A stretch of 64,000 bases of DNA from Candidatus Omnitrophota bacterium (GTDB taxonomy: Bacteria; Omnitrophota; Gorgyraeia; Zapsychrales; Fredricksoniimonadaceae). The notes beneath the pieces were generated by a model, which saw only the letters and a list, made by a program, of their open reading frames with translations, did not search any database and was not told where the DNA came from. Below, in pieces: positions 14,500-60,393 of this stretch (the stretch's first letter is position 1; every line of letters starts with the position of its first letter). The DNA is taken from positions 1,146 to 65,145 of the forward strand of contig CAIUQE010000019.1 in assembly GCA_903901225.1 (NCBI GenBank). Reading direction: 5' to 3'. The position numbers were made by a program, and so were the translations under genes.

Positions 14500-15519
14500 T
14501 TACGTGTTCTCGATCCTGCGCCAGTCGGTGAAGACCGGGTCGATGCCGTGGGCTTTGAGGTATGCGATGGTGTCGGCCGCGCTGCGGTCGTCGGCAATAT
14601 CGAACTGGGGATCGGCGGCCGTCGTGTCATTGTAGCCGCCGACGGTTGTCCTTGATCCGATGGATACTTTTGTCACGCACAAGCCCATGAGGCGGTTGCG
14701 CATCGTCGGAGTTTCGCGCGTTGAGAGGTTGATGCCGGTGTGGGGGAACAGGGCGCGCGTCAGGCATAATATTTTGACGAACGTCGCGTCATCGACATCG
14801 TTCGGCGCGAGGGCTTTTGCCTTGATGGTGCGCAGGCGGGGGAACGAGAGGCTGTATTCCACGCCCGGGAATTTCTTCTCAAGCCCGCGCAGGTGGTTGT
14901 AAAGCGCGGACAGGTCTTGAGCCAAAGGTCCGAGACCGAGCAGGATGCCCAGCGAGATCTGGCGCATGCCGGCTTTGGCGATGCGCTCCGGCGCGCCGTA
15001 GCGAAAAGCATAGTCCCTTTTTTGACCCGCCAGATGAACCTCGCTGTAACGGCTACGATCATAAGTCTCCTGATAGACCGTAACTCCGTCGGCACCGGCA
15101 AGATAAAGCGTGCGGTAGTCATTCTCAGTCATGGGGAAGACTTCGAGTGAAATTCCCTGAAAATATTTTTTGGCCAGCGTTACGGCATCCTTCAGATAGC
15201 CGACGGGCGTGGCCTGCGGCGATTCCCCGGTCAATAACAGGATGTTCTGCACGCCCGTGCGCGCGATGGCCCGCATTTCCGCGTCCATCTGCGCCGGTGT
15301 GAGCTTGACGCGCGTGATCTTGCGGCGGTTGTGGAACCCGCAGTAGGTGCAATGGCTCGTGCAATAATTGGACAGATAGAGCGGGGTGTAAAGCCCGATG
15401 GCTTTCCCGAAATGCCCAAGGGTCAGGCGCCGGGCGTCCTGGGCCAGGGCTTCAAGCTTGACGGGATCGGGGTCATGGAGAACAGCGTTGATGGCTTCGG
15501 GCGTGATATTGGGGCGCAT
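14500..15519 (-). CDS. thiH: 2-iminoacetate synthase ThiH (radical SAM tyrosine lyase)
   Basis: CTSHCTYC is a CxxxCxxC motif. About 340 aa. Immediately downstream of thiS-thiG on the same strand. Confidence 0.8.
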   Translation of the reverse strand: MRPNITPEAINAVLHDPDPVKLEALAQDARRLTLGHFGKAIGLYTPLYLSNYCTSHCTYCGFHNRRKITRVKLTPAQMDAEMRAIARTGVQNILLLTGESPQATPVGYLKDAVTLAKKYFQGISLEVFPMTENDYRTLYLAGADGVTVYQETYDRSRYSEVHLAGQKRDYAFRYGAPERIAKAGMRQISLGILLGLGPLAQDLSALYNHLRGLEKKFPGVEYSLSFPRLRTIKAKALAPNDVDDATFVKILCLTRALFPHTGINLSTRETPTMRNRLMGLCVTKVSIGSRTTVGGYNDTTAADPQFDIADDRSAADTIAYLKAHGIDPVFTDWRRIENT

Positions 15520-15538
15520 GGCGTTGATAACAAAACCT

Positions 15539-16513
15539 TTATTCGAACAGGAAGCCGGTCAGCGGTGAAGACGCTTCTCCCATAGGACGCTTTGCCGGCA
15601 GTCCGCTAAGATAAGCGGTGCGTCCGGCCTCGACGGCCTGCGCGAAGGCTTTGGCCATGGCGGCAGGGTTGTCGGCGATGGCCACAGCAGTATTTACCAG
15701 CACCGCGCTGGCCCCGAGTTCCATGGCCTCGCAGGCATGGGACGGCGCGCCGATGCCGGCATCCACGATGACGGGAATGTCGATCTCCTCGATCAGGACC
15801 TTGATGAAATCGCGCGCGCGCAAACCCTGGTTCGAACCGATGAAAGATCCCAGCGGCATGATGGCCGCGGCACCTGCTTCGACGAGCCGGCGCGCCACAT
15901 AAAGGTCTGCCGAAACATAAGGCAGGACCACGAAGCCTTCTGCCGCGAGAATTTTTGTCGCCGTGATGGTGGCTTCATTGTCGGGCAGGAGGTATTTCGA
16001 ATCATTGATGACCTCGACCTTGATCCAGTGGCCCTGGCCCGAGGCTTTCGCCAGGTGCGCAAGGCGCACGGCCTCATCGGCGGTGCGCGCACCCGAGGTG
16101 TTGGTCAACAACGTGACGTTGTTGGGAAGGTATTGCAAAATATTATCTTCATGCTGTTCAAGGTCGATGCGCCGCAGGGCCACGGTGACGATCTCGGCGC
16201 CCGAAGCGAGGATGCTCTCTTTCACGTCCGCCTTGTTCTTGAATTTTCCGGTGCCCAGAAGGAAACGCGACTTGAACTCCTTGTCCGCCAAAATAAAAGG
16301 GTCTGGCTTTGGACTGCCGCCGCCCATGAAGGTGACAAGCTCCAGCGTGTCGTTGGCGGCAATAGGCGTGGCGGCCCAGCGGGCGCGGTCGATGATCTGC
16401 CCGTTCAGTTCAGTGACAACAAGGTTCGGGTCCTTGCAAAGCTGTGCCACGGCGTTCTGCAGCGACGCTTCCCCCGTGATCTCCCGCGTTTTTCCGTTGA
16501 TGGTCAATGTCAT
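15539..16513 (-). CDS. thiG: ThiS-ThiG fusion (sulfur carrier plus thiazole synthase)
   Basis: An internal ATG gives MTLTINGKTREI...LELVTFMGGG (ThiS, ubiquitin-like, GG end). This is fused to ThiG (FKSRFLLGTGKF...VNTAVA). The track ORF extends to 16555 with an alternative TTG start. Confidence 0.8.
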   Translation of the reverse strand: MTLTINGKTREITGEASLQNAVAQLCKDPNLVVTELNGQIIDRARWAATPIAANDTLELVTFMGGGSPKPDPFILADKEFKSRFLLGTGKFKNKADVKESILASGAEIVTVALRRIDLEQHEDNILQYLPNNVTLLTNTSGARTADEAVRLAHLAKASGQGHWIKVEVINDSKYLLPDNEATITATKILAAEGFVVLPYVSADLYVARRLVEAGAAAIMPLGSFIGSNQGLRARDFIKVLIEEIDIPVIVDAGIGAPSHACEAMELGASAVLVNTAVAIADNPAAMAKAFAQAVEAGRTAYLSGLPAKRPMGEASSPLTGFLFE

Positions 16514-16571
16514 GGGCGTTATTTTAGGGCATGTGCCCTCAAAAAGCAAAAACAAAACAACTGATCCTTGG

Positions 16572-19500
16572 TTATTCCAGGAATTGCGCGGCGGATACGA
16601 GTGGGGTGAGGGAAGTTATGACCGGGGTCAGCCCTTTGATCTTGCCGGGGGCCATGCGGCTGTCAGCCGGGGCCATGGGGACGGCCTGTCCCGTGGTGTC
16701 CAGTTTCAGCAGGTCAGGATTCATGTCGATACCGCCGGGTGTTGCGGCTTTGTCCGCAGTCGCGGGCATGGCGTGATCGGGGGTCATGTCCACGACTTTT
16801 AATGACAGTTCCTTCTCAAAATAATCCGCGATATCATCAAAGGCTTTTTCGGCCTTTTCTTTGCCTGCAGGAGTGTTTGGGATTATTTTTCTGTCTATGG
16901 CGTGTTCTATAAAAGCGGCGTAGTTTTCCGGGGTCATGCGTAGCTCATACTGTGGCGCGAACACCTGACTGATGAACTGGATCATCGGAATATAGCCGGG
17001 GTGATTTTCTTTCAAATAATCGAACAACGATTTTCCGATCTCGGGCTTGAGGATCGCGCGCCTTTCCTGAAAGTCCTTGTTGGCCAGAAGTTGGAATATC
17101 CCGGAAGTTTGAAGGTCGGCGTTGGTAAATGTATCGGCAGCATTGACCGTGAATGTCTGGACGTCAAGCATGTCGTATGATTCTTTATCAACAGGGATAT
17201 GTTCTACGTTAGGAGCCGCATCAAAATAGGTTCTTTCAATGATCGTCTCGGGTCGATGTAACTGAATAGTTCCTGTTGTGCCGTGGGACATGCGGATCTT
17301 CTTTAATTCATGATCATTCATAAAGAAATTATAAGCGGCTGATCCGGGAGTCAGCATGATGCGGCCGTCTTTGGGAAGATATCTTGAAAGTTCCGCGATC
17401 GCGGCGGCAAAGGCGGGTTCCATGTCGTAGGCCGAACCGGTGTAGATGGGGTCAATATAAGCGCCTTCATCGCCAAGGGCCACATGCGCGGTGGCCAGTT
17501 GCCGTCCGTCCTGGTCATGGACAATGATGAAGCCGGCGGTGGCCTGCAGGGCGGTTTCCAACGGGGTTATTTTCTGGACCCCCTCTGATGAAAAACAACC
17601 CTGCCCCGCCCCTTGTCCGACTGAAGCTTCCTCCAGCAGGTCTTTTCTGAAGGTGATCTTTACGTTCTGTTTTCCATTTTGGCTGGTGATGGCTTTTTCC
17701 AGGGCGTCGATCTCGTTGATCTTGGATTGGAGCTCGCTCAGGGTGTTCTTGTGATCCTGGTTGTTATTGAGTTCAGGCGCGGTGTTGAATTTTATGAAGG
17801 CACCCCGGAATTCTTCAGCATCTTTGGTTGTCTGGATCAGTTTAACGGTATTACTAACGGAAACCGGCATGTCCCTGAATTTAAATTCGCGCCATTCAAG
17901 TTTCTTGACGGAGGCTTCCACCGACTCGACCATGGCGGTCGCTGAATGTCGGATCTGTTCCCTGATCTGGACATCGCTCATGCCCTTGGACAAGGACAAG
18001 TCCAGTTCGATCCCTTCTTCCCAGAGCCGGGGATCCCAGCCATTGCCTACCAGACGCGCAACAGCTTCTTTGTTCCCGAATACCAGATCTTTGAATTCAC
18101 GCTGCATTTCCAAATCAGGGTGTATTTTAAAAGAATCTTTTCCGATCGCCATTAGCTTAGTCCGTAAAGCCCTGCTGGCGGCAGATACACCGGCGTTTTT
18201 GTGGTAAGCATTGAGAAACTCTTTGATCGCATATCTGTATAACGACCAGAGGCGGCTTTCTTCGCCCGATTTTGTAAAAACAGACATGATGGTTCCGATC
18301 TGATTGATGAAAGAAGTGTTCTCAAAGAGAGGCGTAGCATTTTCAGGAACAGGCTCCTGGATCAAACTTTCCAGCAAGGTGGCGCGTAATACGGGCATCT
18401 GGCGCGATATTTGGGCCAATGCCTTGCGCGTGTCGGCGTTCCTTGATGTGGCGGATGTTTGAAGAATTTTATGCCACAGGCGGATCAAGGTCACGCTAGC
18501 GGCTTCAATGGCGCGGCCTGCTTTGAGGTCCGGTGGAAGTTGCGGGTCATGGGGCGAAGCTTTGAAAATTATTTTTGACCGGTCGTTATAACTACCATAG
18601 GCTTCTTTCATCAGCATCACTTCAGTGACAAAGGGAAGGGCGTCCATCTTGTAGCGCAGGTCAATGGATGGGTCATCCAAAAGGGCCAGGGTTTTCTCAC
18701 TAAGCAGTTCGGTTGTTCGATAGCCCCAACTGTGAAGACGATCGATGAATTGCTGCAATCTTTGCATATAGAGCGGCTTGCCGCTTAAAATCGTATCTCG
18801 AACGGCGGATTCAATGCGGCGTTGGTCATTGATATGCTGGTAATTTTTTCTTAAATCGGGTTTATTTCTCTGCGAGGCGGTTTGCAGTAATTCTTTTATC
18901 GGACGCACCTGTTGATCAATGTATATCGCGTAAGTTGCAAGCGTGTGCCCGGCGGCATGCTGGGCAAGGTTTAAAAATATTTTCTGAAAAAGGTTTCTAT
19001 TGTCGTCGTTAACGATCATATAGTTGTTAAGTGCTTTCCCCAGGGTAAGAATGTTCGATGCGATATTGGTGACATTTTTATAAAACTCATCTGCAGGATC
19101 ATCGGTCAGCATTGTTCCCAAGTTTGCAGGCAAAGGGGCTTTAAGGATGTTTTCAATAATAGATCGACGCAGCCCAGGCATTAAGGCGTCAACGGCCTCG
19201 GGTGTTCCCGCGTTAACGGGTTGTGCCAGAATACGGTCGGTAGCGACAAAGACAGCATCAAAAGCGGGGCGCTCGTCCTGAAGTGAACCTTGCATCAGGT
19301 TTGCCAGATACGCAATAGCTCCCACGCTGTGCATGATCTTGAAGCGCATATCAGCCGCTATCGTTTGGTCCATGATGACAGGCATGATGTTGGGGGTTTT
19401 TGGTAAAAGAATTTGACGAAATTTTTTATGTGTGAGTAGTTGTGTGAGATCTTTAATGGGTTGAACATCGCCATCAAGGCAAACTTCCGTGATAAGTTCC

Positions 19501-21665
19501 GGCAGGCCGTTTAACTTATTGATCTCAAGGCCTTTCGTCGCATCAAAAAGATGTTTAATATTATTGGTATCTTCATCCATGCGCGTGAGGAATTCTGGCA
19601 TCGTGTGTGTGGCAGAAAATCGCACCCACTTGTCAAGAATGAGGGGCGTAAACAGACGCGCATCCTCTGGAGAAAAAACACCTGCGTCAACCGCCGCGTC
19701 TGCCAGATCCCAAAGTTTATTTTTTATCCTGGTGAAAAAACGGGGTGGATTGGAGTTGTTCGCCATCAGGGATGTTTTAAGATTTAAGGCAATAGTCAGG
19801 AATCCGGTATAAAACTCCTCCGGCATGGCCGAGGAAATCCCTTGAATGATCCGGAAATAAGACTCCCCCAGCGGATCTAGCGCATCAAGGATGACTTCAA
19901 ATAATTTTTTCAAATTCGCGTCAACAGGGATGGTATGCTTCAGCTGATGCAATTGCCAGGCATCAACTTTGAAAAATAAAGAATTGTGGTCTTGCATCAT
20001 GGCAACAAAAACCTTTACGAATTTCAGCCACAGGCGATCAAAATCCTGGCCAAGGATATTTTTCAGGACAAACAATGATAACTTGGGGTATCGTGACTTA
20101 GGATCATCATAATCTGTGATGTTTTTCTCATTGTACTTAATAAAATCGATCAGAGACCCCTTGCCCGCAAGCCCCATCTTATAAAGGCCCGGCCATAATT
20201 TTTCAAATTCTTTTTGCCGCGATACCTGGTCTGTTCCAAGGTGGTCATACATGTTATTTATGATCTTGAGGGCTTCATAACTTCCATAGGTGTCACCCCC
20301 TTCTTGCCCGCTGACAGTTTTTAACAACAGCACCAATTCTTCTTCATGTACTTGAAGCCACGGTTTATCTAGTTTTAAAAGCAATGGAAAGCCGTGGGTA
20401 GTCAGCACGTAAGTGGTTAGTAAATTAGTGTTAGCGATTTTCTCTGAAAGTGACAAGAAATACGCCGCATCTTTTTGCCCGCTGAATATAGCCGTAACTT
20501 GATCCTTGACATCATTCCATCGGTAATGTTCTTCCGCCATATCGCATGCCGCAAGGAGCATGGGGCGGCCCGTGAGCGCGGCTTTTACTGGAGCGGGGTC
20601 ATTATCTTCCACGAGGGTGAGTCCTGCGGCATCCACGCCACCCGTAAAATATTTTCTTGGCAGGACTTCGCCGGTCGCGGGATCGGGTTCTTCCCGGATC
20701 ATATTGATGACACCCTTGCGGTACGCCGCGATGTATTGCTGGTAGATCTGTTCATTACCATCCTTACCGGGCTGTTCCACGCCTGAGGTCGCGCTTTGGT
20801 CGACGTAGGCTTTCCCCAGAAGGCTCTGCCTGAGATGATCCTTGAACCATTTGGCCAGGATCATGGCGTGGAAGACCTGGCGCAGGAGAGCGAAGTTCTT
20901 GCCGGTGTTGATCTCCGCTTCGATCTTCGGCAGGAGCACCTCGCGCATGGCCGTGGTCGTGAGGTCGCTGGCAGGAGCTGAGGACTCTGCGATGCCCCTC
21001 TGATGAGACATGGCTATGTAATCTTCTTCCAACATTACTTTCAGATGACTTTCCAGGATCACCACCGTGGTGCCGTTGGCGTAAACCCGGGCGCGGTCGG
21101 GCGTGATCCAGATCTTGTGGAAGGTGTCGAGCGGGACATCGGTGGTGCCAAAGCGTTCAGCCAACGTTTTATAAAGGAGGTCCCAGTAAGTCCGGCCCAG
21201 CGCGGTATCCGGGTTCATCAGGGAACTTGTCAGCTGTTTGAGAAGGTAATCCTGCGCCAATAGATCGCGTGCCATGGTTGTCGGGCCGAAAGCCTTGGGT
21301 GTGATCCGGTCAGGCTCAAGGGGTGAGAGGTTGACCCAAAGGTCGCTCTGGGGAACGGTCAAAGCGGTCAGAAAGTATTTGACGAGGTCCTGGGTGGTGT
21401 CTTTTAGAACAGGTTGATCACCGGGTCCTTGCCCGGGATCGACCAGGAAATCGAAATGAAACGGATGGCGCGGGTCGATCTTAAGGCCCTTGAGACAGGC
21501 GGGTTGGAACGCCGGTGACATGGTAACGGGCGCGCCCGGTGGTGGCAGGGGCACGGCCATCTGGGCCAAGGCCGGGCCGGGAAGCACACTGGTTCCCAGA
21601 AAGGCGGCCAATAGGACGCCGCGCAGAACATGAAAGATCCTGTGGGTGCGCAAATAATACATCAT
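16572..21665 (-). CDS. Giant paralog-family protein P1 (1697 aa): signal peptide, conserved N-domain, long unique middle, conserved C-tail
   Basis: Signal peptide ...PALAQ|MAVPLPPPG. N-domain motifs (CLKGLKIDPRHPFHFDFLVD, DLWVNLSP, FGTTDVPLDTFHKIWI, PRKYFTGG) are shared with the ORFs at 27256, 30461 and 60960. C-tail GGIDMNP...GLTPVITSL...AAQFLE. The middle of the gene has lower GC. Confidence 0.8.
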   Translation of the reverse strand: MMYYLRTHRIFHVLRGVLLAAFLGTSVLPGPALAQMAVPLPPPGAPVTMSPAFQPACLKGLKIDPRHPFHFDFLVDPGQGPGDQPVLKDTTQDLVKYFLTALTVPQSDLWVNLSPLEPDRITPKAFGPTTMARDLLAQDYLLKQLTSSLMNPDTALGRTYWDLLYKTLAERFGTTDVPLDTFHKIWITPDRARVYANGTTVVILESHLKVMLEEDYIAMSHQRGIAESSAPASDLTTTAMREVLLPKIEAEINTGKNFALLRQVFHAMILAKWFKDHLRQSLLGKAYVDQSATSGVEQPGKDGNEQIYQQYIAAYRKGVINMIREEPDPATGEVLPRKYFTGGVDAAGLTLVEDNDPAPVKAALTGRPMLLAACDMAEEHYRWNDVKDQVTAIFSGQKDAAYFLSLSEKIANTNLLTTYVLTTHGFPLLLKLDKPWLQVHEEELVLLLKTVSGQEGGDTYGSYEALKIINNMYDHLGTDQVSRQKEFEKLWPGLYKMGLAGKGSLIDFIKYNEKNITDYDDPKSRYPKLSLFVLKNILGQDFDRLWLKFVKVFVAMMQDHNSLFFKVDAWQLHQLKHTIPVDANLKKLFEVILDALDPLGESYFRIIQGISSAMPEEFYTGFLTIALNLKTSLMANNSNPPRFFTRIKNKLWDLADAAVDAGVFSPEDARLFTPLILDKWVRFSATHTMPEFLTRMDEDTNNIKHLFDATKGLEINKLNGLPELITEVCLDGDVQPIKDLTQLLTHKKFRQILLPKTPNIMPVIMDQTIAADMRFKIMHSVGAIAYLANLMQGSLQDERPAFDAVFVATDRILAQPVNAGTPEAVDALMPGLRRSIIENILKAPLPANLGTMLTDDPADEFYKNVTNIASNILTLGKALNNYMIVNDDNRNLFQKIFLNLAQHAAGHTLATYAIYIDQQVRPIKELLQTASQRNKPDLRKNYQHINDQRRIESAVRDTILSGKPLYMQRLQQFIDRLHSWGYRTTELLSEKTLALLDDPSIDLRYKMDALPFVTEVMLMKEAYGSYNDRSKIIFKASPHDPQLPPDLKAGRAIEAASVTLIRLWHKILQTSATSRNADTRKALAQISRQMPVLRATLLESLIQEPVPENATPLFENTSFINQIGTIMSVFTKSGEESRLWSLYRYAIKEFLNAYHKNAGVSAASRALRTKLMAIGKDSFKIHPDLEMQREFKDLVFGNKEAVARLVGNGWDPRLWEEGIELDLSLSKGMSDVQIREQIRHSATAMVESVEASVKKLEWREFKFRDMPVSVSNTVKLIQTTKDAEEFRGAFIKFNTAPELNNNQDHKNTLSELQSKINEIDALEKAITSQNGKQNVKITFRKDLLEEASVGQGAGQGCFSSEGVQKITPLETALQATAGFIIVHDQDGRQLATAHVALGDEGAYIDPIYTGSAYDMEPAFAAAIAELSRYLPKDGRIMLTPGSAAYNFFMNDHELKKIRMSHGTTGTIQLHRPETIIERTYFDAAPNVEHIPVDKESYDMLDVQTFTVNAADTFTNADLQTSGIFQLLANKDFQERRAILKPEIGKSLFDYLKENHPGYIPMIQFISQVFAPQYELRMTPENYAAFIEHAIDRKIIPNTPAGKEKAEKAFDDIADYFEKELSLKVVDMTPDHAMPATADKAATPGGIDMNPDLLKLDTTGQAVPMAPADSRMAPGKIKGLTPVITSLTPLVSAAQFLE

Positions 21666-27255: not shown

Positions 27256-30200
27256 ATGAAATTGGACGTGAAGCGAATTCTACATGGAATTCTTGCGGGC
27301 ATTTTGATCCTGGCATTCATTGTGCCGGATCTGCGGGTCTATGCGCAGGGAGTTATTTCTTTGCCGGAACCGGGCGTTGGATTCGCGCTGAGCCCGGCAT
27401 TTTCACCCGTGCTCCTTAAGGGCATCAAGGTCCGCTTGAACGACCCTTTCCGTTTTGATTTCATCCTGGACAAAGGCGATGGCACGGCCACGGCGGCGCA
27501 GATCAAGGCCGACGCCACCCGCCTGATCAAATACTTTCTCGCCTCCCTGACGATCCCGGAAAGCGACCTCTGGGTCAACCTTTCACCCTATGAAAAAGAC
27601 CGTATCATCCCCGACGCTTTTGGCCAGACGGGGATGGGGCGCGACCTGCTTGTCCTGGATTATCTCCTCAAAAAAACAATGGCCATGCTCCTGCACCCGG
27701 ATGGTGCGGTGGGAAAGAAATTCTGGGAGAAACTCTACGCCCGGGCCTACGAGGTCTACGGGACCACCGACATTCCCATTGACACCTTCAATAAGGTCTG
27801 GATCACCACGGACAGCGCCGAGATCTACGCGCGGTCGAAAGATGAAGGCACGCCGGTCCAGGCCGCCGTGGCTTTCGTGACCGCAACCCATCTGAAGGTC
27901 ATGCTGGAGAGTGATTACGTAGCCCTGTCCCATCAGAGGGACAGGGCGGATTCCTCTGCTCCTGCCGAGGACGTAGCCCTGTCCCGTACAACCCAAGGTG
28001 CTGACGCCATGAGCGTAGGGGAGGACTTTATGTCCTCCCGCCATGATCTCGAAAAGAATGTTCTTCGCGAGATCATCATCCCCGTCCTCGAAAAGGAAGT
28101 GAACGAGGGCCGGGATTTCAGCCAGCTGCGGCAGATCTATACCAGCCTTGTGCTGGCGACATGGTACAAGAAGGAGTTGACGAACGCCCTTGTGACCAGG
28201 GTCTACGCGGACCAGGGCAAGGTGGCCGGGATCACGCACCATGATCCCGGGATGCAGCAAAGAATATGGGACAGCTATGCCGAAACCTTCCGCAAAGGGG
28301 TGTATAACCTGATCCGGGAAGAGGTCGATCCGGCTTCTGGGGAAACCATTCCCCGGAAATATTTCTCCGGCGGGGTGGTCCTGCATGGCGATTATGCAAC
28401 GACACAAGAAAGGCCTTCGGCGGAAGGTCCTGGAGATTACGCGGCAATGACAGTGGACCTGGCGCAGGACACTACAGGGGAAGCAACGACACTCAATGAT
28501 ATCCTTGGCCCTTCCGCTGAACAGGCGGTCATGGCAAAATATTTCAGCCGGGGGAAACTTCCCAGTCATGTCAGGAAATTCTTGTCCGGCAGGAATGAGC
28601 TGGTCCGGGACAATAATACGAAAGAATTTGTCCGACGGTTGATGGATATCATGGAGACCGTTGGGCCCGATGTCGGGAACATGATCATAGACTTCATGCG
28701 GGGAGAGCTCGGCGGGAAATTTCTTCTCAAGGATTTGGTTGACCCGGGAGTTCTGTCGGTGTTGTTTCGCGGGGATAAGGATACGCAGGCGTTGCTGGAG
28801 ATGGCTGTGGAGGAGAATGACCCGCGTTACATTGGTTCAGCGCTGGCGGATTTTTTTAAGAAAGAGTTTGATCAGGAAGATGACTTTCAGACTGTCACCA
28901 GGGCGGCGCTCCTGTTGCGTTGCCTTTATGGTTTTCCCCAGGAACGGGTCCCGTTGGTATACCTTACGGCCCTTGAAACTTCCGGGATCCTTGAGCTGTT
29001 CCGGTATGTTCACCGTAATCCGGCATTAAAAGGACAGTATTCATTTCTTACTCCGGGGAATCCGATTGTTACGGCGATCCTGGAGAATAACGGGCCGGAG
29101 CTTGTGCGTTTGATCAATGAGATCCCCTGCCCGCCGGCAAAAAAAGCGGGGCTGTTGTTGCCGATAAAAAAGATGCTCGCGCACTACGGTTATCCTCTCG
29201 TTGCCATTGACGTCGGGAGCGCCGCGGATAACACGCTGCCGGCGTCTGACCCCCTTCCCATAAACATTTCCCTTCACGGTCAATTGTCCGCGATGGAGGA
29301 CATATTATCGGATACGGGCGCCGACCAGGCGTTGGTTTTGAAAGCAGTATTAAAGATCCTGGAAGATGTTAAGGAAACCCTGTCCCATGATCCGCATATT
29401 TATAAGGAATTGGTTGCCAGCTTCCAGGATGAATTGGTCAAAGCCCGAAGCAGTTACCTCCAGCAGCTAGCCATACAACACAAGGATAATGAGGATGCCC
29501 TTTTCGTTGCCGTGACGCAGGCAGAAACAGCCATGTTGCTGGGCTTTGATGAGACCGACATCGTTATTTTGAAAGCGTTCCATTTCTTGAAAAGGAATAA
29601 AACGAATCCGACCATGGAAAGGATCATCAAACACCTCAAAGAGGCGTCATCTGAGATCGATACAGCGACCCTGGAAAAGATATCTATCTTGAAGGATTTT
29701 TTCACCGGGATGATCGCTCTTGATCTTCAGGAAGAACATGTCATTTATGCCAAAGAGGCCAGGACGCTCAGGGATTTTGATATCGACCAGTTTTACCGGA
29801 ACAACATCGAGCATGGCTTTCAGGACCTGGTGATCGCCATGATGGAAGAAACAGGTGCTGACAAAGAGAGTGTGCAGAATTATTTGACAAGTAAAAAGAT
29901 ATTTCCCAACGGGCAGATGGCATTGCTTAATGTTAATGAGTATCCTGTTTTGAGAATAAATAGCAGCTTTGTCAATGAGAGGCTTTTGAAAATAATGACT
30001 CGGGATGTCAAGGATGCAATCAGGAAGATCCTGGATGGCGTGGCTGATGGCAATCAACATATCCCTTTTATTTATCGAACCACACTGGGTAACCAAAAGA
30101 ATTTTTCCATTTATGTCAGGATCAATGGAGTGATCGGGAACAATGAGTTAAGACATGCGGGGCTGGCTGACATTGAAATTAAAGACTTGTTGAATGCTTT

Positions 30201-30585
30201 GGCTAATAAAGAAAACAGCCTGATCTCGGCATTGAATACACAGGCCAGGTACACATTTCGGTCAGGAGATATAACAAAATTCTCCACCGTTATAAAAAAG
30301 ATCATACCTCTGCCGCAGGTTCAAGAAAATGTAATAAATCTCATTAAAACATCCCTGCATAACAGGGAGGTTGTTATCGTTGCCTTTGGAGCAAGGGCCA
30401 AGTTCAAAATGCGATCAGACACCAACTCAATGTTGCACGACTTTGAGCAGCATTTGAATAATGTTTCCACAGGTACTATTGAGCCTCTTCCTGTTTATGC
30501 CGATCAGGCCATGTCTCTTGAGAAAGATCTCGGCGGTATTGACCTTGATCCCGCCGCTGCTCAAAGGCATCAAGGTTTATCGTAA
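27256..30585 (+). CDS. Giant paralog-family protein P2 (about 1110 aa from ATG 27256), C-tail truncated at fusion junction
   Basis: RBS aaggcggag precedes ATG 27256. Signal peptide ...RVYAQ|GVISLPEPG. N-domain LLKGIKVRLNDPFRFDFILDKGDG...DLWVNLSPYEKDRI...PRKYFSGG. Ends GGIDLDPAAAQRHQGLS*, where the tail motif GGIDL-P runs into nucleotides encoding the next paralog's N-domain. The track ORF starts at 27055 inside comEC. Confidence 0.75.
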   Translation: MKLDVKRILHGILAGILILAFIVPDLRVYAQGVISLPEPGVGFALSPAFSPVLLKGIKVRLNDPFRFDFILDKGDGTATAAQIKADATRLIKYFLASLTIPESDLWVNLSPYEKDRIIPDAFGQTGMGRDLLVLDYLLKKTMAMLLHPDGAVGKKFWEKLYARAYEVYGTTDIPIDTFNKVWITTDSAEIYARSKDEGTPVQAAVAFVTATHLKVMLESDYVALSHQRDRADSSAPAEDVALSRTTQGADAMSVGEDFMSSRHDLEKNVLREIIIPVLEKEVNEGRDFSQLRQIYTSLVLATWYKKELTNALVTRVYADQGKVAGITHHDPGMQQRIWDSYAETFRKGVYNLIREEVDPASGETIPRKYFSGGVVLHGDYATTQERPSAEGPGDYAAMTVDLAQDTTGEATTLNDILGPSAEQAVMAKYFSRGKLPSHVRKFLSGRNELVRDNNTKEFVRRLMDIMETVGPDVGNMIIDFMRGELGGKFLLKDLVDPGVLSVLFRGDKDTQALLEMAVEENDPRYIGSALADFFKKEFDQEDDFQTVTRAALLLRCLYGFPQERVPLVYLTALETSGILELFRYVHRNPALKGQYSFLTPGNPIVTAILENNGPELVRLINEIPCPPAKKAGLLLPIKKMLAHYGYPLVAIDVGSAADNTLPASDPLPINISLHGQLSAMEDILSDTGADQALVLKAVLKILEDVKETLSHDPHIYKELVASFQDELVKARSSYLQQLAIQHKDNEDALFVAVTQAETAMLLGFDETDIVILKAFHFLKRNKTNPTMERIIKHLKEASSEIDTATLEKISILKDFFTGMIALDLQEEHVIYAKEARTLRDFDIDQFYRNNIEHGFQDLVIAMMEETGADKESVQNYLTSKKIFPNGQMALLNVNEYPVLRINSSFVNERLLKIMTRDVKDAIRKILDGVADGNQHIPFIYRTTLGNQKNFSIYVRINGVIGNNELRHAGLADIEIKDLLNALANKENSLISALNTQARYTFRSGDITKFSTVIKKIIPLPQVQENVINLIKTSLHNREVVIVAFGARAKFKMRSDTNSMLHDFEQHLNNVSTGTIEPLPVYADQAMSLEKDLGGIDLDPAAAQRHQGLS

Positions 30586-33500
30586 TGACCCGTTCCGGTT
30601 TGATTTCATCCTCGACAAAGGTGATGGCAAGGCCGTGGAGGCGCAGACAAAAACGGATGCCACCCGGTTGATCAAATATTTCCTTGCGTCGCTGACGGTT
30701 CCCGAGAAAGACCTGTGGGTCAACCTCTCGCCCTATGAAAAAGACCGCATCGTGCCCGAAGCCTTCGGGAAGACCGAGATGGGCCGTGATCTTCTCGCGC
30801 AGGATTACATCCTCAAGCAAATAACAGCATCGCTCATTTACCCCGATGAAAAGACCGGCAAGGAATTCTGGGCCAAAGTTTACGCCGAAGCACAGCGTCG
30901 TTACGGCACAACGGACATCCCGGTCGACACCTTCAACAAGGTCTGGATCATCCCCGAAAAAGCCACCGTCTACGAACACAAAGACGCCGTATATGTGGTT
31001 GAGAGCCGATTGAAAGTCATGTTGGAAACGGATTATATTGCGATGACGCGGGCGGACACAAGGTCCGCCCCTACAACGCAAGGTGTTGACTTCGTGAGCG
31101 TAGGGGAGGACCTTGTGTCCTCCCGCCATGAGCTCGCCAAGAATGTTCTGCGCGAGATCATCATCCCCGCCCTTGAAAAAGAAGTCAACGAAGGCCAAAA
31201 CTTCGCCACGCTGCGCCAGGTCTACAATTCCCTGATTCTAGCCACCTGGTACAAGCGCAAGGTCAAGGCCGGCATCCTTGGCCAGGCGTATGTCGACAAA
31301 AAGAAGACGGGCGGCATCGACATCAAGGACAAGAACGAAAAGGAAAAGATCTGGGCCCAGTACGTCGAGGCGTTCAGGAGGGGGGCGTATAACCTTATCA
31401 GGGAAGAATACGACTCGACGACCAGATCCACTACTCCGAGAAAATATTTCGCGGGAGGATTGGCCTTGAGTGTGGACGCCGCGATGGATATTACGTCAGA
31501 TGCGGCAAGCGTGGCAAGTATGCCTGGTGATAGATTTGAAATCATCATTTCGTCTCTTTTATCGGTCGACAGGGCGATGTCTGAGAGGGATAGTCACGTG
31601 CCGCCTACTGTTGAAATGGTAAACCGGATAAATAATCTTGTTGAAGCGCTTGGCAGTCCAGACGGGCTGGTGCGTGCGCATGCGGCTAAAGAGCTTCTTA
31701 AGATGGATGAAAAGGGAGTGAGGCAGTCGTTATTTGAAAATGGTTACTGGTCTGAAAAAGAGTCAATGTCAGGCAAGTTCAGAGCGTTGATCTTGAAAAA
31801 AGTACCGGCATGGAAGTTGGTGCTGGAGGCGTTCAACACACTGAATGTTTTTGATGGTTATGAAAAGATAGACATGCGTAATAATCCTGCAAGATATCTG
31901 GCCCTGGGCATGGAGGTCATGTTTTGGCCAAAAAGGTATTCATTTTATTCTTGGTGGAATTTTTCAACATATCTTTTAGCGATGAAGGATTATGACCAGT
32001 TTATCGATTATGTGGCTTTTAGTCCGGCCAAAGTGTTCAGCACGGAGTCGATCTTATCAGAAGTCAGAAGCACCCAAAGTTATTCGCAAAAGAAGTTCTT
32101 CCTGGATGTTTTGATCCGCCGGAAAGAGCCGAAAGCAGTTGAACTGTCTTGGGCATGGATCGGAAGAAAGGGGACTGTTAATGATTTTCACAGCGCTTTG
32201 CAGGATTCAATTGAAGGATATTTGAAGGACGCGGACCCAAAATTTGTTTCAGCAGCATTTTTCTCCCGTGAGGCCAGGAAAGGTCCTGGCAAGCTGGCGA
32301 TAGATTATTTGAATATTTTCCCGACGGCTTCGGCGCTTAAAGATGATGTGAGCATCATGTCGACATCCAGCTGCCCTTTCAACTGCAGGATGTGCGTTGC
32401 CAAGAAAATCCGCAGGGAGCGCAACCCTGATGTCCCTAAAGCAGAATTGTTCAGGCGGATCGATCAGGTCAGGGGCGCCTCGAGGATCCGGTTCGTTGGA
32501 CCCGGTGAAACGACAGCTTATGGAAAACAGGATTTATCGGAACCTGGATTTTCCAGGGACTTTATTGATGTGCTCAAGTATGCGTCCGAAGCTGCTGATG
32601 AGATCTATGTTGTGACCAACGGCCTTTTAATCCCCGCCGACATGGATCAAGCCAGAAGTCTGCTGGGAAATCTTCCCAATAACATTGTTTGGATCCTTTC
32701 AGTTGATGAGCAACACGCGGCAGAAATGGCAAGAGTTCAGGACGGCAAGAAACTTACAGATCTGGTGATGGTGTTCGAAGGATTGCATAATGAGGATCAT
32801 ATTAAGGCAGGATATTTTGTGGCGGCCACCTTTTCCGACCAATCGAAAGTTACAAGACAGTTTGGATTGAGGGATGCCGAGAAAGAGCACCGGGTTACAG
32901 CTTTTCCGATCATAGAACAAGGTGTCGCCGCAGAAGCGATGAAGGGTGAAGTTTCGTACAGGGACCCTGGCCATTACAATGATCACTCAAAGGAGGAGGG
33001 CAGGACAGACCTGTACATTGATATGGATGGCTTCGTTGTGGGTTCAAACCATGTCGCTTTCATGACTTCCGGGGAAAGAAAGACTATTCGCACGTTCAAT
33101 ATTTTTGGGAATGTTCAGGAGCAGCCCTTATCCGATTTTATGCTTATAAAATACAAGACAAGGGCGATATGGAACGACTATGGCAGTGAAAAAGAATTTT
33201 TTGAATGCTGTAAATATCTTCTCAAGGCGATCGCGTTGTATTTAGATGGTAATGAAAAAGAACTGCAAGGACAATTGACCATCATAAGGGCCATGCCAAT
33301 GAATTTGAGAAAGAAGGTTGTCGAAAAGTTACATGGGAATTTTGAATGGATAGATCTGAGGGAACGTGTATTACTTGGTATTTGGTTTAGCCGCTATTTA
33401 CCGGATTGGTGGGAGCTTATCCTAAAGAAAGACAAGGTCCATTACTTTGGCAACTTGACGCAGCTTTTTTCTTCCAAAGGTACTCAGACGGGAGATAATG

Positions 33501-33697
33501 CCGAGGTTGCACAAAACGGCGGTATCGACCTCAACCCCTCTAAAATTGACATGGCCACGAAGAACAGCGGCGCGCCGATCGATCTCAACCTCGACCCCGC
33601 GATGCTCTGGCGTATGCAGGATGCTTCCGGCGTCACACCTGTCATTGTCGGCATCCATGCTCTTGGAAGCCTGCGGCAGTTCCTCGAAATTCCGTAG
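30461..33697 (+). CDS. Giant paralog-family protein P3 (N-domain, radical-SAM-like payload, C-tail), lacking its own start and signal peptide; possible pseudogene or frameshift fusion with P2
   Basis: From about 30557 the frame encodes IPPLLKGIKVYRNDPFRFDFILDKGDG...DLWVNLSPYEKDRI...PRKYFAGG, about 80% nucleotide identity to P2 27414 onward. Payload has CPFNCRMC, FVGPGETTAYG, VVTNG and ILSVDEQ (radical SAM core). C-tail GGIDLNP...LDPAML...GVTPVIVGI...FLEIP. The frame is +1 relative to P2. The 5' part of the track ORF reads through the P2 3' end. Confidence 0.6.
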   Translation: MFPQVLLSLFLFMPIRPCLLRKISAVLTLIPPLLKGIKVYRNDPFRFDFILDKGDGKAVEAQTKTDATRLIKYFLASLTVPEKDLWVNLSPYEKDRIVPEAFGKTEMGRDLLAQDYILKQITASLIYPDEKTGKEFWAKVYAEAQRRYGTTDIPVDTFNKVWIIPEKATVYEHKDAVYVVESRLKVMLETDYIAMTRADTRSAPTTQGVDFVSVGEDLVSSRHELAKNVLREIIIPALEKEVNEGQNFATLRQVYNSLILATWYKRKVKAGILGQAYVDKKKTGGIDIKDKNEKEKIWAQYVEAFRRGAYNLIREEYDSTTRSTTPRKYFAGGLALSVDAAMDITSDAASVASMPGDRFEIIISSLLSVDRAMSERDSHVPPTVEMVNRINNLVEALGSPDGLVRAHAAKELLKMDEKGVRQSLFENGYWSEKESMSGKFRALILKKVPAWKLVLEAFNTLNVFDGYEKIDMRNNPARYLALGMEVMFWPKRYSFYSWWNFSTYLLAMKDYDQFIDYVAFSPAKVFSTESILSEVRSTQSYSQKKFFLDVLIRRKEPKAVELSWAWIGRKGTVNDFHSALQDSIEGYLKDADPKFVSAAFFSREARKGPGKLAIDYLNIFPTASALKDDVSIMSTSSCPFNCRMCVAKKIRRERNPDVPKAELFRRIDQVRGASRIRFVGPGETTAYGKQDLSEPGFSRDFIDVLKYASEAADEIYVVTNGLLIPADMDQARSLLGNLPNNIVWILSVDEQHAAEMARVQDGKKLTDLVMVFEGLHNEDHIKAGYFVAATFSDQSKVTRQFGLRDAEKEHRVTAFPIIEQGVAAEAMKGEVSYRDPGHYNDHSKEEGRTDLYIDMDGFVVGSNHVAFMTSGERKTIRTFNIFGNVQEQPLSDFMLIKYKTRAIWNDYGSEKEFFECCKYLLKAIALYLDGNEKELQGQLTIIRAMPMNLRKKVVEKLHGNFEWIDLRERVLLGIWFSRYLPDWWELILKKDKVHYFGNLTQLFSSKGTQTGDNAEVAQNGGIDLNPSKIDMATKNSGAPIDLNLDPAMLWRMQDASGVTPVIVGIHALGSLRQFLEIP

Positions 33698-33739
33698 TGA
33701 GATATCTCAAGACAGAGTATTTTCGATCCTCCGCCTTCA

Positions 33740-33768
33740 TTGACAAACATTTCCCCCTGTGATACATT
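33740..33768 (+). promoter_or_regulatory. Sigma70-like promoter (TTGACA-17-TACATT) upstream of the BamD-like gene
   Basis: TTGACA at 33740-45, a 17-nt spacer, then TACATT at 33763-68. It sits about 19 nt upstream of the start codon. Confidence 0.4.
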
Positions 33769-33786
33769 GGGCGCACTGTGTTTTAT

Positions 33787-34749
33787 ATGAAAATCAGGCC
33801 TACTCTTATAGCTCTTGTTGTCGTCGCCTCCGCCATGGCCATGGCCGCGCCGGCCCATGCCTTCTGGATCTGGACGCCGGAAAGTGGCAAGTGGGTCAAT
33901 CCCAAATACTCCGTTAAGCCTTCGCCGCAGGAACAGCTGGCCTACGCCGATACTTTTTTTCAGGCGGGCAAGTACCCGGAGGCGATGCGCGAATACAAGA
34001 AACTTTTGAAGCATTATCCCAAGGCCCGCGAGGCCGCTGAGGCGCAGTTCAATATGGGCCGCGCCTGGGAGGACCTGAAGAAATTCTGGCGCGCCGTTGA
34101 AGAATACCAGAAGGTCGTGGATCGTTATCCTTTCAGCGACCTTGGCCCCAAGGTCGTGGAGCGGCAGTACGCCATCGCGGACCTTTTTCTCGAGGGTAAG
34201 GCCAAGGACCATGAGTTCGCCCAGTCATTGCTGGGGACGGATTATCAGGTCCCCGAGGTTTTCCTGAAAGTCATCAAGAACGACCCTTATGGTCCGCTCG
34301 CGCCTGTGTCCCAATACAAGATCGGTCTTTTTTACCTGGCCAAGCGTGATTACCAGCAGGCCCGTGACGCTTTTGAGAAGACGGTCAACGATTATCCGGA
34401 TTCCAAGTGGGCGGAAGCGGCGCGTTACCAGATCGCGGTCGCGGACGCCAAGCGCTCAGTCGGGGCCCAGTATGACCAAAAAACAACGAATATCGCCGTC
34501 CAGGGGTTTGAGGATTACGTGAAGCTGAACCCTGAATCCGACCTTTCCGCCTCCGCCAAGGAACAGATCAACAAATTACGGGAGAAGGAAGCGGAAAATA
34601 ATTTTGTGGTCGGTGAGTATTACGCGAAAATGAAGAGGTACAATTCCGCCAGGATATACTGGCAGACCGTCGTCGACAAGTATGCTGACACGCCCTGGGC
34701 CGCCAAAGCCTCCGCGCAGCTCAAGGCCATTGCGGGTAAAGCTTCATGA
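33787..34749 (+). CDS. TPR-repeat outer membrane assembly protein, BamD/YfiO-like
   Basis: Signal peptide MKIRPTLIALVVVASAMAMAAPAHA. Multiple TPR-like helices. C-terminal YYAKMKRYNSARIYWQTVVDKY. Followed by lptE. The track start at 33778 is a GTG. Confidence 0.5.
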   Translation: MKIRPTLIALVVVASAMAMAAPAHAFWIWTPESGKWVNPKYSVKPSPQEQLAYADTFFQAGKYPEAMREYKKLLKHYPKAREAAEAQFNMGRAWEDLKKFWRAVEEYQKVVDRYPFSDLGPKVVERQYAIADLFLEGKAKDHEFAQSLLGTDYQVPEVFLKVIKNDPYGPLAPVSQYKIGLFYLAKRDYQQARDAFEKTVNDYPDSKWAEAARYQIAVADAKRSVGAQYDQKTTNIAVQGFEDYVKLNPESDLSASAKEQINKLREKEAENNFVVGEYYAKMKRYNSARIYWQTVVDKYADTPWAAKASAQLKAIAGKAS

Positions 34750-35264
34750 AGAAAGCGGTCCTTCTAGTCCTGGTCCTGTTGCTGGCCGGCTGCGGTTATA
34801 GCACCAGATCCCTCCTGCCGAGCCGTTTCCGCACGATCTATATCGAGCCTTTTGAGAACAAGGTCGATTACATGAACACCACCGAGCGCAAACTTTATAT
34901 TCCCGGCATGGAAACGCGCGTGCGCGAGGCCGTGGTGGACCGCTACCTCTTCGATGGCAACCTGCGCATCGGCAACAAGGATACGGCGGACCTTGTGCTC
35001 AAGGGGCAGTTGCTGAGCTTTGAGCGCGAGCAGCTCAGCCTCCAGCCGAACGAATCTGTCCAGGAATACCGGCTTCGCGTGACCGTTGCGCTTGAGCTTG
35101 TTGATTCTGTTGAAAAGCAGCCGATGTGGAAAGAAACTGCTTTCGCGGGTGAGGCCACATATTATACGGTTGGTCCTTTGGCCAAACCTGAAGCCCAGGC
35201 GATCGACGAAGCCATCAAAGACCTGGCCTTGCGCGTGGTCGCCCGTACCGTTGAAGCCTGGTAA
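34746..35264 (+). CDS. lptE: LPS-assembly lipoprotein LptE-like
   Basis: Lipobox LLLAGC|GY. IYIEPFENK... matches the LptE/RlpB pattern. Overlaps the upstream gene by 4 bp. Confidence 0.6.
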   Translation: MKKAVLLVLVLLLAGCGYSTRSLLPSRFRTIYIEPFENKVDYMNTTERKLYIPGMETRVREAVVDRYLFDGNLRIGNKDTADLVLKGQLLSFEREQLSLQPNESVQEYRLRVTVALELVDSVEKQPMWKETAFAGEATYYTVGPLAKPEAQAIDEAIKDLALRVVARTVEAW

Positions 35265-35300
35265 GGCCAGCTTCTCCCAACCCCGGCCTGATATTGAAAC

Positions 35301-35954
35301 ATGCCCCTGCATCAGCTCATCCTTGGTCCTGATGTCCCCTTGCGCGACAAAGCCCTTCGCGTCCTGAAAGCCCGTTTTCTTAAAACTCCCGAGGCCTTGA
35401 AGTTCGACCTGAATTATCTCGACGCGCAGGACCTTGCGTTCCAGGACCTCAAGGCCGCTTTGTTGACACTGCCGGCGGTGGCGGAGAGGCGGGTCGTTTT
35501 TGTCAGCCGCGCGGAGAAGCTTGACGAACAGCAGCTTGAACTCATCGAGCAGGTGATCGACCGTGACGCTTTGGGCTGCGTCATCGTGCTTGAGGCGGCG
35601 CAATGGGACAAGAGGGTCCCGGCGCGCAAGCGCCTCGCGGCCAAGCTGGAGGTTTCCGGTGGTGAACCAAAGCTCACGGCCTTTGACTTGTTTCGGGACT
35701 TGCCCCGTGACCGCGCGGGCATGCTCGCGCGGCTTGGGGAACTTTTAGAGGATGAGGCGGTGGAGAATATTTTGGGCGCCTTGCGGTGGTGGTGGTGCCA
35801 TGAGATGAAAAGGTCGATCGCGGCGGTAAAATATAAAAAAGGCCTCCTGGTCATCCAGGAGGCCGATCAGAGGATCAAGTTAAGCGGCCTGCTCTCGCGG
35901 GAGCAGTCGATCGAAGTGGCTCTGGTCAAGCTTTCTTCGTTGATAAAAGCTTAG
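35301..35954 (+). CDS. holA: DNA polymerase III delta subunit-like (HolA), short
   Basis: LILGPDVPLRDKALRVLKARFL...AERRVVFVSRAEKLDEQQLELIEQVI resembles HolA but is only 217 aa. Followed convergently by rpsT, as in many genomes. Confidence 0.5.
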   Translation: MPLHQLILGPDVPLRDKALRVLKARFLKTPEALKFDLNYLDAQDLAFQDLKAALLTLPAVAERRVVFVSRAEKLDEQQLELIEQVIDRDALGCVIVLEAAQWDKRVPARKRLAAKLEVSGGEPKLTAFDLFRDLPRDRAGMLARLGELLEDEAVENILGALRWWWCHEMKRSIAAVKYKKGLLVIQEADQRIKLSGLLSREQSIEVALVKLSSLIKA

Positions 35955-59673: not shown

Positions 59674-60393
59674 GTGCGTATGGTCAGGAAAATACTGTTG
59701 CTGGCGGTGGTCGTGGCGGGTGCGATGATGGCGGGGCTGGCGCGTGCCGAGCAGGTTCAGCCGCTGCAGGTGGCTCTTTTCACGCCGGTGCAGCTTGTCC
59801 CGCCGGGTGAGTTTATTCGGGGGCTTCGTCTTGACCTGATCTACGGCGAGAATGAAAACGTGAGCGGCATTGACCTTGGCCTGGCGAACAGGACGGACGC
59901 GAATTTTGAAGGGATCCAGTGGGGCGCGGTTAACCTCAACGGCGGCCACACCTTCGGCTGGCAGTCGGCTTTCGTGAATATTGATGGCACGCGGATGGTG
60001 GGCTTGCAGACGGGCCTTCTGAATACGGTCGACGGCGACACGACTGGTATCCAATGGGGTGTTGTCAATTGGAACGCGGGGTTCGTCCATGGCTGGCAGG
60101 AAGGGCTGTTCAATTATGTCGGGGGCGAATTCATTGGCTGGCAGGATGGCGGGTTAAACGTTGTCCAGGGCGGGGCCAAGGGCCTTCAGACCGGCCTTGT
60201 GAACCTTGTGGACGGCCCGTTCAGCGGGGTGCAGGTCGGGTTCATCTGGAATTACGCGCAGTCCGTGCATGGCGTGCAGATCGGCCTTGTGAATGCCACG
60301 AAGTCGCTCAATGGCCTGCAGGTCGGCATCGCCAATTACAATGGCAACAAACAGCCGTTCGAGTTTTTCCCTATCGTTAACTGGTCATTCTAA
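59674..60393 (+). CDS. Secreted tandem-repeat protein (about 11 copies of a 15-aa G-x-Q-x-G-x-x-N unit)
   Basis: Signal peptide AGAMMAGLARA|EQ. Periodic GIQWGAVNLNGGHTF / GWQSAFVNIDGTRMV / GLQTGLLNTVDGDTT ... units suggest a beta-solenoid. Confidence 0.55.
   Translation: MRMVRKILLLAVVVAGAMMAGLARAEQVQPLQVALFTPVQLVPPGEFIRGLRLDLIYGENENVSGIDLGLANRTDANFEGIQWGAVNLNGGHTFGWQSAFVNIDGTRMVGLQTGLLNTVDGDTTGIQWGVVNWNAGFVHGWQEGLFNYVGGEFIGWQDGGLNVVQGGAKGLQTGLVNLVDGPFSGVQVGFIWNYAQSVHGVQIGLVNATKSLNGLQVGIANYNGNKQPFEFFPIVNWSF

Follow-up and report, generated by a model that had tools for sequence, protein, structure and literature searches.

The activity of radical S-adenosylmethionine (SAM) enzymes is considered to be restricted to a reducing cytoplasm. 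In the phylum Omnitrophota they have been recorded within long or giant proteins: in the searched passages of one preprint the radical SAM family PF04055 is given for 90 of 916 long Omnitrophota proteins, and a signal peptide or transmembrane helices for 94% of the 916 (bioRxiv 10.64898/2026.06.07.730766), while West-Roberts et al., in the passages searched, describe some of the predicted extracellular locations as seemingly very unlikely (bioRxiv 10.1101/2023.11.21.568195). Here we describe P3, an open reading frame (ORF) of 1078 amino acids (aa) counted from the ATG at 30461 (30461-33697, forward strand), located in a 64,000-nucleotide (nt) stretch of a Candidatus Omnitrophota genome (contig CAIUQE010000019.1, positions 1,146 to 65,145; the whole stretch is called the window below). 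Residues 605-960 of P3 make up a radical SAM (AdoMet radical) domain that is complete and has the fold of a partial (beta/alpha)6 barrel, and P3 itself is a 5'-truncated copy that lacks its signal peptide through a deletion. P3 is probably best explained as a motif-complete radical SAM cassette of a protein family with Sec-type signals, whose own signal has been lost and which would be cytoplasmic if translated.

With the radical SAM proteins among the long and giant Omnitrophota proteins, as far as these are covered in the searched passages of the two preprints, P3 shares the phylum, the Pfam family and the occurrence of cytoplasm-type enzymes behind signal peptides or membrane helices. It differs from them in that P3 and its relatives P0126 and P0129 are only ~1100-1400 aa long and belong to a family defined by a conserved N-domain and C-tail, and in that P3 is signal-less. 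No description of this N-domain/C-tail family was found in those passages or in wider literature searches. The general phenomenon, i.e. radical SAM domains in signal-bearing Omnitrophota proteins, is on record there; the compact family and the clade described here are not.

Among structurally described enzymes, the fold neighbours that appear closest to the P3 clade, judged from a predicted model, are the peptide- and protein-modifying twitch/SPASM enzymes (EpeE/YydG, SkfB, SuiB, anSME) and viperin. The motifs CX3CX2C, GGE, TNG and SxD are shared with EpeE/YydG (8ai1), SkfB (6efn), SuiB (5v1q), anSMEcpe (4k36), MoaA (1tv7) and BtrN (4m7s), and the partial (beta/alpha)6 barrel and a post-barrel beta-hairpin, at the position where twitch/SPASM domains begin, are shared with the twitch/SPASM-related branch of PF04055. 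In contrast to that branch, the P3 clade has no auxiliary-cluster cysteines and no match to PF13186; it has an invariant D-x-x-H, an S-x-H-x-A-F motif and a four-helix C-terminal extension of its own, and it is embedded in proteins of 1000-7500 aa instead of standing alone. Viperin and prokaryotic viperin-like proteins (5vsl, 6b4c, 7n7i, 9dfn) are the top sequence-profile matches in the PDB (5e-10 to 3e-8) and likewise have a single cluster without an auxiliary Fe-S site. However, the viperin model NF038283 scores P3 at 18.7-21 bits, over the core only, against a cut-off of 180, and the match is limited to the ~170-190-residue barrel core, so that the hairpin and the four helices of P3 fall outside it. 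The features of the radical SAM domain are as follows.

30461-33697, forward strand: P3 ORF; in public assemblies its start is called at TTG 30539 or 30545, for a product of 1052 or 1050 aa
32273-33340, forward strand: radical SAM domain, P3 residues ~605-960, delimited by alignment, profile matches and AlphaFold2 model
32372-32395, forward strand: CPFNCRMC (CX3CX2C), residues 638-645; conserved without exception in the 30 aligned sequences, and carried by 54 of 57 relatives
32498-32527, forward strand: GPGETTAYGK, GGE-type motif for SAM binding where beta2 ends, residues 680-689; G680 and E683 invariant, strand taken from the model
32603-32635, forward strand: IYVVTNGLLIP, beta3 followed by TNG, residues 715-725; T719 invariant, N720 at least 90% conserved
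32684-32719, forward strand: IVWILSVDEQHA, beta4 with SxD and a clade-specific invariant His, residues 742-753; D749 and H752 invariant
33008-33139, forward strand: hairpin DLYIDMDGFVVGSNHVAF...FNIFGNVQEQPLSDF, residues 850-893, resembling the start of a twitch/SPASM domain, without cysteines; conserved His in S.H.AF

An earlier note on this DNA had claimed four radical SAM motifs in canonical order within 32330-33010, a span that corresponds to P3 residues 624-850 and thereby to the barrel core. All four were located in P3 in the order claimed, and their assignment to structural elements was correct, with the cluster loop followed by GGE after beta2, TNG after beta3 and SxD after beta4. The cysteine trio sits in the loop after strand 629-633 of the AlphaFold2 model, and C638, C642 and C645 are the predicted ligands of a [4Fe-4S] cluster; the GPGE portion of the GGE-type motif comprises residues 680-683, TNG residues 719-721, and SxD is S747-V-D749, with an invariant D. 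In the model, residues 605-960 are laid out as an N-terminal helix, the (beta/alpha)6 core, the cysteine-less beta-hairpin and the four-helix C-terminal extension.

Pfam PF04055, whose gathering score is 29.5 bits, matches the isolated P3 domain with 25.6 bits (E = 1.6e-5) and whole P3 with 23.1 bits. Sub-threshold scores are also found for P0126 (23.0 bits) and P0129 (22.6 bits), both of them intact genes of other genomes; the relatives P0133, P0132 and P0135 reach 54.5, 51.2 and 42.7 bits, and 27 of 30 members of the clade match at E <= 0.01 (best 2.5e-15). Going by these sequence scores, the shortfall appears to be a trait of the subclade of P3, P0126 and P0129, not of P3 alone. Several NCBIfam radical SAM models match the same stretch of P3 (TIGR04317 best, at 6e-9; also TIGR04311, the viperin model and others), none of them near its own cut-off, the top score being 35 bits vs a cut-off of 380. 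The matches to a radical SAM hidden Markov model that the earlier note had asked for are thus available, that to PF04055 below threshold.

Searching 5.8 billion proteins by a word-indexed method with the payload as query returned P3 itself only, and a word-indexed search with a radical SAM family profile returned only 7 proteins. By exhaustive phmmer comparison with 1.84 billion cluster representatives, 57 relatives were found; CX3CX2C is present in 54 of them, and at the matching position in the 35 that were aligned. An alignment of 30 sequences (A3) was used for conservation, as a profile and as AlphaFold2 input. Invariant in all 30 are C638, C642, C645, G680, E683, T719, D749, H752 and a single glycine of the C-terminal hairpin, and the conservation of the three cysteines that had been named as a check is accordingly complete (30/30). 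Compared with the PDB, the profile matches a viperin-like protein best (9dfn, 5e-10), followed by YydG, viperin, SkfB, MoaA, PqqE and BtrN. The AlphaFold2 model (predicted local distance difference test 91.5, predicted template modelling score 0.91) has six beta/alpha repeats and is compatible with the partial (beta/alpha)6 TIM barrel that had been proposed; the top structures retrieved with it by Foldseek are anSMEcpe, EpeE, SkfB, DesII, SuiB, MoaA and BtrN. In 38 columns one residue is shared by 75% or more of the other 29 sequences; P3 conforms at 33 of these (87%; other members 63-100%), and its five deviations are conservative (G/A, V/L, S/A, V/I, L/F). The suggestion of the earlier note that the module might be a decayed cassette is not supported, all invariant residues and 33 of the 38 conserved columns having been kept.

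The clade to which P3 belongs has no curated model or name, carries a single cluster and lies near the twitch/SPASM and viperin branches. Its specific marks are the invariant D-x-x-H after beta4 and the conserved S-x-H-x-A-F. No auxiliary-cluster cysteines occur in the hairpin (850-893) of P3 or its relatives, and the SPASM model PF13186, which the earlier note had suggested running, is unmatched in the 30 clade members. The closer relatives are parts of long multidomain proteins of 1000-7503 aa, including proteins of 5052, 5475, 6938 and 7503 aa among the closest, and in such long proteins the module accompanies varied enzyme domains. Of the eight closer relatives that have a source name or record title, seven are labelled Candidatus Omnitrophota or Omnitrophica, and the eighth, P0137 (locus L010), is on a record titled 'uncultured Planctomycetia'; many of the larger relatives begin with a hydrophobic segment. 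More distant relatives stand alone at 370-640 aa. One of these is an annotated radical SAM protein of Margulisiibacteriota, whose gene lies between hrcA-grpE-dnaK-dnaJ on one side and a HemN-like radical SAM gene followed by lepA on the other, a neighbourhood that offers no functional clue. In phage and plasmid collections the radical SAM domain is unmatched. As side observations, P0133 (2762 aa, Omnitrophota) contains two CX3CX2C motifs (residues 321 and 1929) and an ARMT1-like phosphatase domain, and in P0131 the module is paired with a GNAT domain.

The window encodes four paralogs, P1, P2, P3 and P4, which share a hydrophobic N-terminus, an N-domain of ~320 aa (signature LPxPG...LLKGIKV...PFRFDFILD...PRKYFSGG) and a tail of ~60 aa (GGIDLN...DPA...PVI), with unrelated middles. 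The parts of P3 outside the radical SAM domain and the other family members in the window are listed below, with guanine-cytosine (GC) content as a fraction.

16572-21665, reverse strand: P1, with intact signal peptide, N-domain, a different payload and C-tail
27256-30585, forward strand: P2, with signal peptide, N-domain and an unrelated payload; its C-tail ends after GGIDLDP
30547-30562, no strand: deletion junction, where GGIDLDP of P2 is joined at a +1 frame offset to PPLLKGIKV of P3
30551-31459, forward strand: truncated N-domain of P3, residues 31-333, from PPLLKGIKV to PRKYFAGG; 69% identical to P4 and P0126
31460-32272, forward strand: middle region of P3, residues 334-604, first part of the payload cassette, unmatched in databases; GC 0.44
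33515-33694, forward strand: family C-tail of P3, residues 1019-1078, NGGIDLNP...DPAM...TPVIVGI...
60960-63434, forward strand: P4, whose signal peptide is intact, with N-domain, HExxH-bearing payload and C-tail

More than 1300 relatives of the N-domain were found. Among the 120 matches listed most are unnamed, the named ones being mostly hypothetical proteins of Candidatus Omnitrophica or Omnitrophota with few other labels, and among the matches listed a few carry other enzyme domains (HAD hydrolase, SAM-dependent methyltransferase) and also HEAT repeats. N-domain and tail are unmatched in Pfam, NCBIfam and the PDB sequences, and no literature was found on GGIDL motifs or on a conserved Omnitrophota N-terminal domain. 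Residues ~370-1000 of P3 are the variable cassette of the family. The middle region is 33% identical to that of P0126 over 247 aa and 28% identical to P0128, with a weak match to HEAT_2; residues 340-610 have no meaningful match in the PDB. Sequence comparison suggests that payload cassettes may be shuffled between the conserved ends. Exchange of cassettes is indicated because low GC is confined to the payload of P3 (0.39-0.48), its conserved ends having 0.54 and 0.57 and the core genes of the window 0.57-0.63; shuffling is indicated because P0126 shares its payload with P3 (45% identity) but has a tail resembling that of P4 (72% identity, vs 44% to the tail of P3). As whole genes, the four family members form low-GC islands in the window (0.47-0.51, vs 0.57-0.63 for leuS, secA, murJ and a histidine kinase). 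The payload of P4 contains HEISH (HExxH; residues 472-476, 62373-62387), a possible zinc-metallopeptidase motif without a Pfam match; a payload of that type would suit an extracellular site.

In all 62 full-length N-termini of the family that were inspected, a charged n-region is followed by 12-15 hydrophobic core residues and an AQA|Q-type c-region, as judged by eye; this layout looks like that of Sec signals cleaved by signal peptidase I. Export by the twin-arginine translocation pathway, through which a folded Fe-S protein could pass, was considered and rejected, given that RR occurs in only 5 of the 62 N-termini, without a consistent motif of the kind S/T-R-R-x-F-L-K, and that the h-regions are strongly hydrophobic. 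In P3 this signal is gone. P2 ends in ...DLGGIDLDPAAAQRHQGLS*, and reading this DNA from one base further on yields ...TLIPPLLKGIKVYRNDPF, the N-domain of P3; P2 has lost its tail after GGIDLDP, and P3 its signal peptide and ~25 residues of the mature N-domain (LPxPG...SPxFxP). A stop codon in the P3 frame lies directly upstream of the ATG at 30461, and the first ~30 codons of P3 are the tail of P2 out of frame, their hydrophobic start (MFPQVLLSLFLF...) being skipped by gene callers. The two ORFs overlap at 30461-30585, by 41-125 nt depending on the start assumed for P3. P3 would not be exported through an N-terminal signal, because signal peptide and first N-domain residues are deleted; the earlier note, which placed the radical SAM payload behind a secretion-type N-domain, was right about the N-domain itself and wrong in supposing the export signal to go with it.

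The junction is not an assembly artefact, since the same arrangement recurs in independent assemblies. An independent ENA contig matches the window at 27865-35600 with one mismatch in 7736 nt, the 1050-aa product with the same truncated start was present on all 16 contigs read, the upstream gene overlapping each time, and the P3 ORF is identical or nearly so on these 16; the index lists the product in 26 collection blocks. Locus scans of genomes and metagenomes with alignment A5 gave 4 genome loci and 3 metagenome loci, all encoding proteins already known, and so revealed no P3 ortholog whose N-terminus is intact. A promoter and terminator scan around P2 and P3 was uninformative.

Fusion of the payload to the same N-domain in related genomes, which the earlier note proposed to look for, was found in two proteins.

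P0126, 1391 aa, locus L009, 3340-7515: signal peptide, N-domain, middle region, radical SAM domain and tail; another Omnitrophota genome
P0129, 1122 aa, locus L008, 4042-7419: signal peptide, N-domain, middle region, radical SAM domain and tail; another Omnitrophota genome

The middle region of P0126 is related to that of P3, that of P0129 not detectably so. A hydropathy scan of both proteins shows the N-terminal hydrophobic segment only, so a helix would not be expected to return their payload to the cytoplasm. Hidden membrane helices between N-domain and payload were also considered for the family and rejected, none being present in P0126, P0129 or P3 and P4 having one weak candidate. The puzzle of a Sec signal in front of a radical SAM enzyme, raised in the earlier note for P3, therefore dissolves for P3 itself, whose signal is lost, and judged from the sequences appears to hold for P0126 and P0129. 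P3, P0126, P0129 and the stand-alone relative P0152 share no neighbourhood genes; near one of the two loci are genes for a metallophosphatase, an AAA/DUF4143 protein and an SPFH protein, near the other sugar-nucleotide genes.

Translation from an internal start, if it occurs, would leave P3 in the cytoplasm, because P3 has no signal peptide, and radical SAM chemistry would be workable there. C638, C642 and C645 would hold the [4Fe-4S] cluster and SAM would be bound via GPGE, TNG and SVD; the reduced cluster would cleave SAM, yielding a 5'-deoxyadenosyl radical that would abstract a hydrogen atom from the substrate. The latter would most likely be a peptide or protein, a weak indication taken from the nearest folds of the model (EpeE/YydG, SkfB, SuiB, ChlB, anSME) and further weakened by viperin and BlsE, which score similarly to the maturase folds.

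Several observations weigh against P3 as a functional cytoplasmic enzyme. P3 stays below the gathering threshold of PF04055, as a whole protein and as an isolated domain alike; no clear ribosome-binding site precedes any of its candidate start codons; the P3 gene overlaps P2 by 41-125 nt; in one public assembly the N-domain of P3 is interrupted by an additional frameshift (P0005 + P0003); all known copies are near-identical, which precludes an estimate of selection; and no conserved partner gene (precursor peptide, reductase or immunity gene) was found beside P3, P0126 or P0129. Some of these would fit a recent pseudogene, in which one deletion removed the start and signal of P3 and the tail of P2 and inactivated both, the motifs being intact because too little time has passed for decay. 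The 5' truncation with a 'start' consisting of the P2 tail out of frame, the further frameshift, the lack of a clear ribosome-binding site at the sequence level and the near-identity of the copies (1 mismatch in 7736 nt, so that the event may be young) all agree with this view. Against it, the 1078-codon ORF is free of stops on each of the 16 contigs read, and all catalytic motifs and 87% of the conserved columns are intact, although both findings would be compatible with a young pseudogene too. We regard this explanation as unlikely, and favour the motif-complete, signal-less cassette.

Another reading takes the family as exported effectors, which would leave the cell unfolded via Sec and be passed into prey or host, where the apo-enzyme would take the Fe-S cluster, SAM and electrons of the victim and damage or reprogram it; P3 would then be a disabled or stored cassette. 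Indeed, P0126 and P0129 combine an intact Sec-type signal, N-domain, radical SAM domain and tail with no intervening membrane helix, and the n/h/c layout with a cleavage-like AQA|Q site was found in 62 of 62 full-length N-termini; other payloads of the family (HAD hydrolase, SAM-dependent methyltransferase) are of cytoplasmic type as well. Directly downstream of P3 (33778-35264, forward strand) lie genes for a BamD/YfiO-like tetratricopeptide-repeat lipoprotein and for LptE, both of outer-membrane biogenesis; the organism should therefore be diderm, so that a protein exported by Sec alone would end up in the periplasm. A literature search for secreted radical SAM enzymes found none, and we know of no secreted radical SAM effector. 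Omnitrophota have been described as predatory or host-dependent in the parts of the sources consulted (PMC10066038; bioRxiv 10.1101/2023.11.21.568195).

The shuffled cassettes and low-GC payloads recall polymorphic effector loci. With polymorphic toxin loci (Zhang et al. 2012, PMC3482391) the family has in common conserved ends of a trafficking type, swapped enzymatic cassettes, several paralogs per genome and a deviant base composition of the cassettes. However, its variable module is internal, between two conserved ends, unlike the variable C-terminal part of classical polymorphic toxins; no immunity gene, dedicated secretion gene or other delivery machinery adjoins P3, P0126 or P0129, and toxicity is not implied by the likeness. 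P3 itself, moreover, has no signal. Delivery into another cell, one of the options of the earlier note, is neither supported nor contradicted by these observations, and we consider the effector reading distinctly unlikely. Its narrower form, in which proteins of the P0126/P0129 type would be Sec-exported carriers bringing an apo radical SAM enzyme into prey or host, to be loaded there with the Fe-S cluster and SAM of the victim, seems to us improbable. If it were true, a radical SAM effector would be described for the first time, and N-domain and GGIDLN tail would form parts of a new cargo-delivery scaffold of Omnitrophota that bears its cargo as an internal cassette.

A further possibility is that the radical SAM domain acts in the cytoplasm of the producer, before or during export, as a maturase of its own chain or of sibling family proteins (N-domain, tail or payload), e.g. 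by epimerisation or cross-linking, in the way that free-standing radical SAM maturases act on exported peptides. Its fold neighbours EpeE/YydG, SkfB, SuiB, ChlB, CteB and anSME are maturases of proteins or of ribosomally synthesised and post-translationally modified peptides, and the commonest NCBIfam match is the maturase model TIGR04317, the others being non-maturase radical SAM models. The HXS system, in which a radical SAM enzyme matures a periplasmic effector (PMC13128918), offers a precedent, and a signal-less P3 beside three intact paralogs would suit a maturase acting in trans. But a folded Fe-S domain cannot cross SecYEG, so that P0126 and P0129 would need unfolding or cleavage, for which no cleavage site is known, and a conserved motif that could serve as target was not found. 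The domain cannot be a general maturase for the family, because only 3-4 of the >1300 members carry it; we hold the maturase reading to be a long shot.

Finally, a +1 ribosomal frameshift at CCC-G (30550-30553) fusing P2 and P3 into an exported protein of ~2150 aa with two payloads and one tail is highly improbable speculation: the offset between the two frames is indeed +1, slippage on the Pro codon would produce an unbroken ...GGIDLD-P-PLLKGIKV... (junction-spanning sequence ...GGIDLDPPLLKGIK...), and very long modular proteins are made by Omnitrophota according to the searched passages of the two preprints (bioRxiv 10.64898/2026.06.07.730766; 10.1101/2023.11.21.568195), but CCC-G has no stimulatory element, rare codon or stop, and none of 193 proteins examined, giant relatives included, has a comparable in-frame tail-to-N-domain junction.

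Elsewhere in the window, the region 14500-16555 (reverse strand) contains a ThiH/BioB-like radical SAM gene (PF04055 + BATS, 45.8 bits), beside which the ORF 15539-16555 looks by eye like a thiS-thiG fusion, and a B12-binding radical SAM gene lies at 3318-4865 (reverse strand, 77.7 bits). From these two genes it follows that the organism encodes conventional radical SAM enzymes too. The ORF at 59674-60393 (forward strand) encodes a protein of 239 aa that starts like a signal peptide, contains many G[LV]Q.G[LV].N-type repeats and has no Pfam match at E <= 1e-5.

Two groups missing from databases are newly defined by this analysis, namely a radical SAM clade without an auxiliary cluster and with invariant D-x-x-H and S-x-H-x-A-F, and an N-domain/C-tail family of more than 1300 members. 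The radical SAM module recurs behind Sec-type signals in a compact family of ~1100-1400 aa, and not just in giant proteins. The compact family is thus a small, tractable test case for the question, posed by recent phylum-wide surveys, whether the cytoplasm-type enzyme domains in signal-bearing proteins of Omnitrophota are truly exported, and what for.

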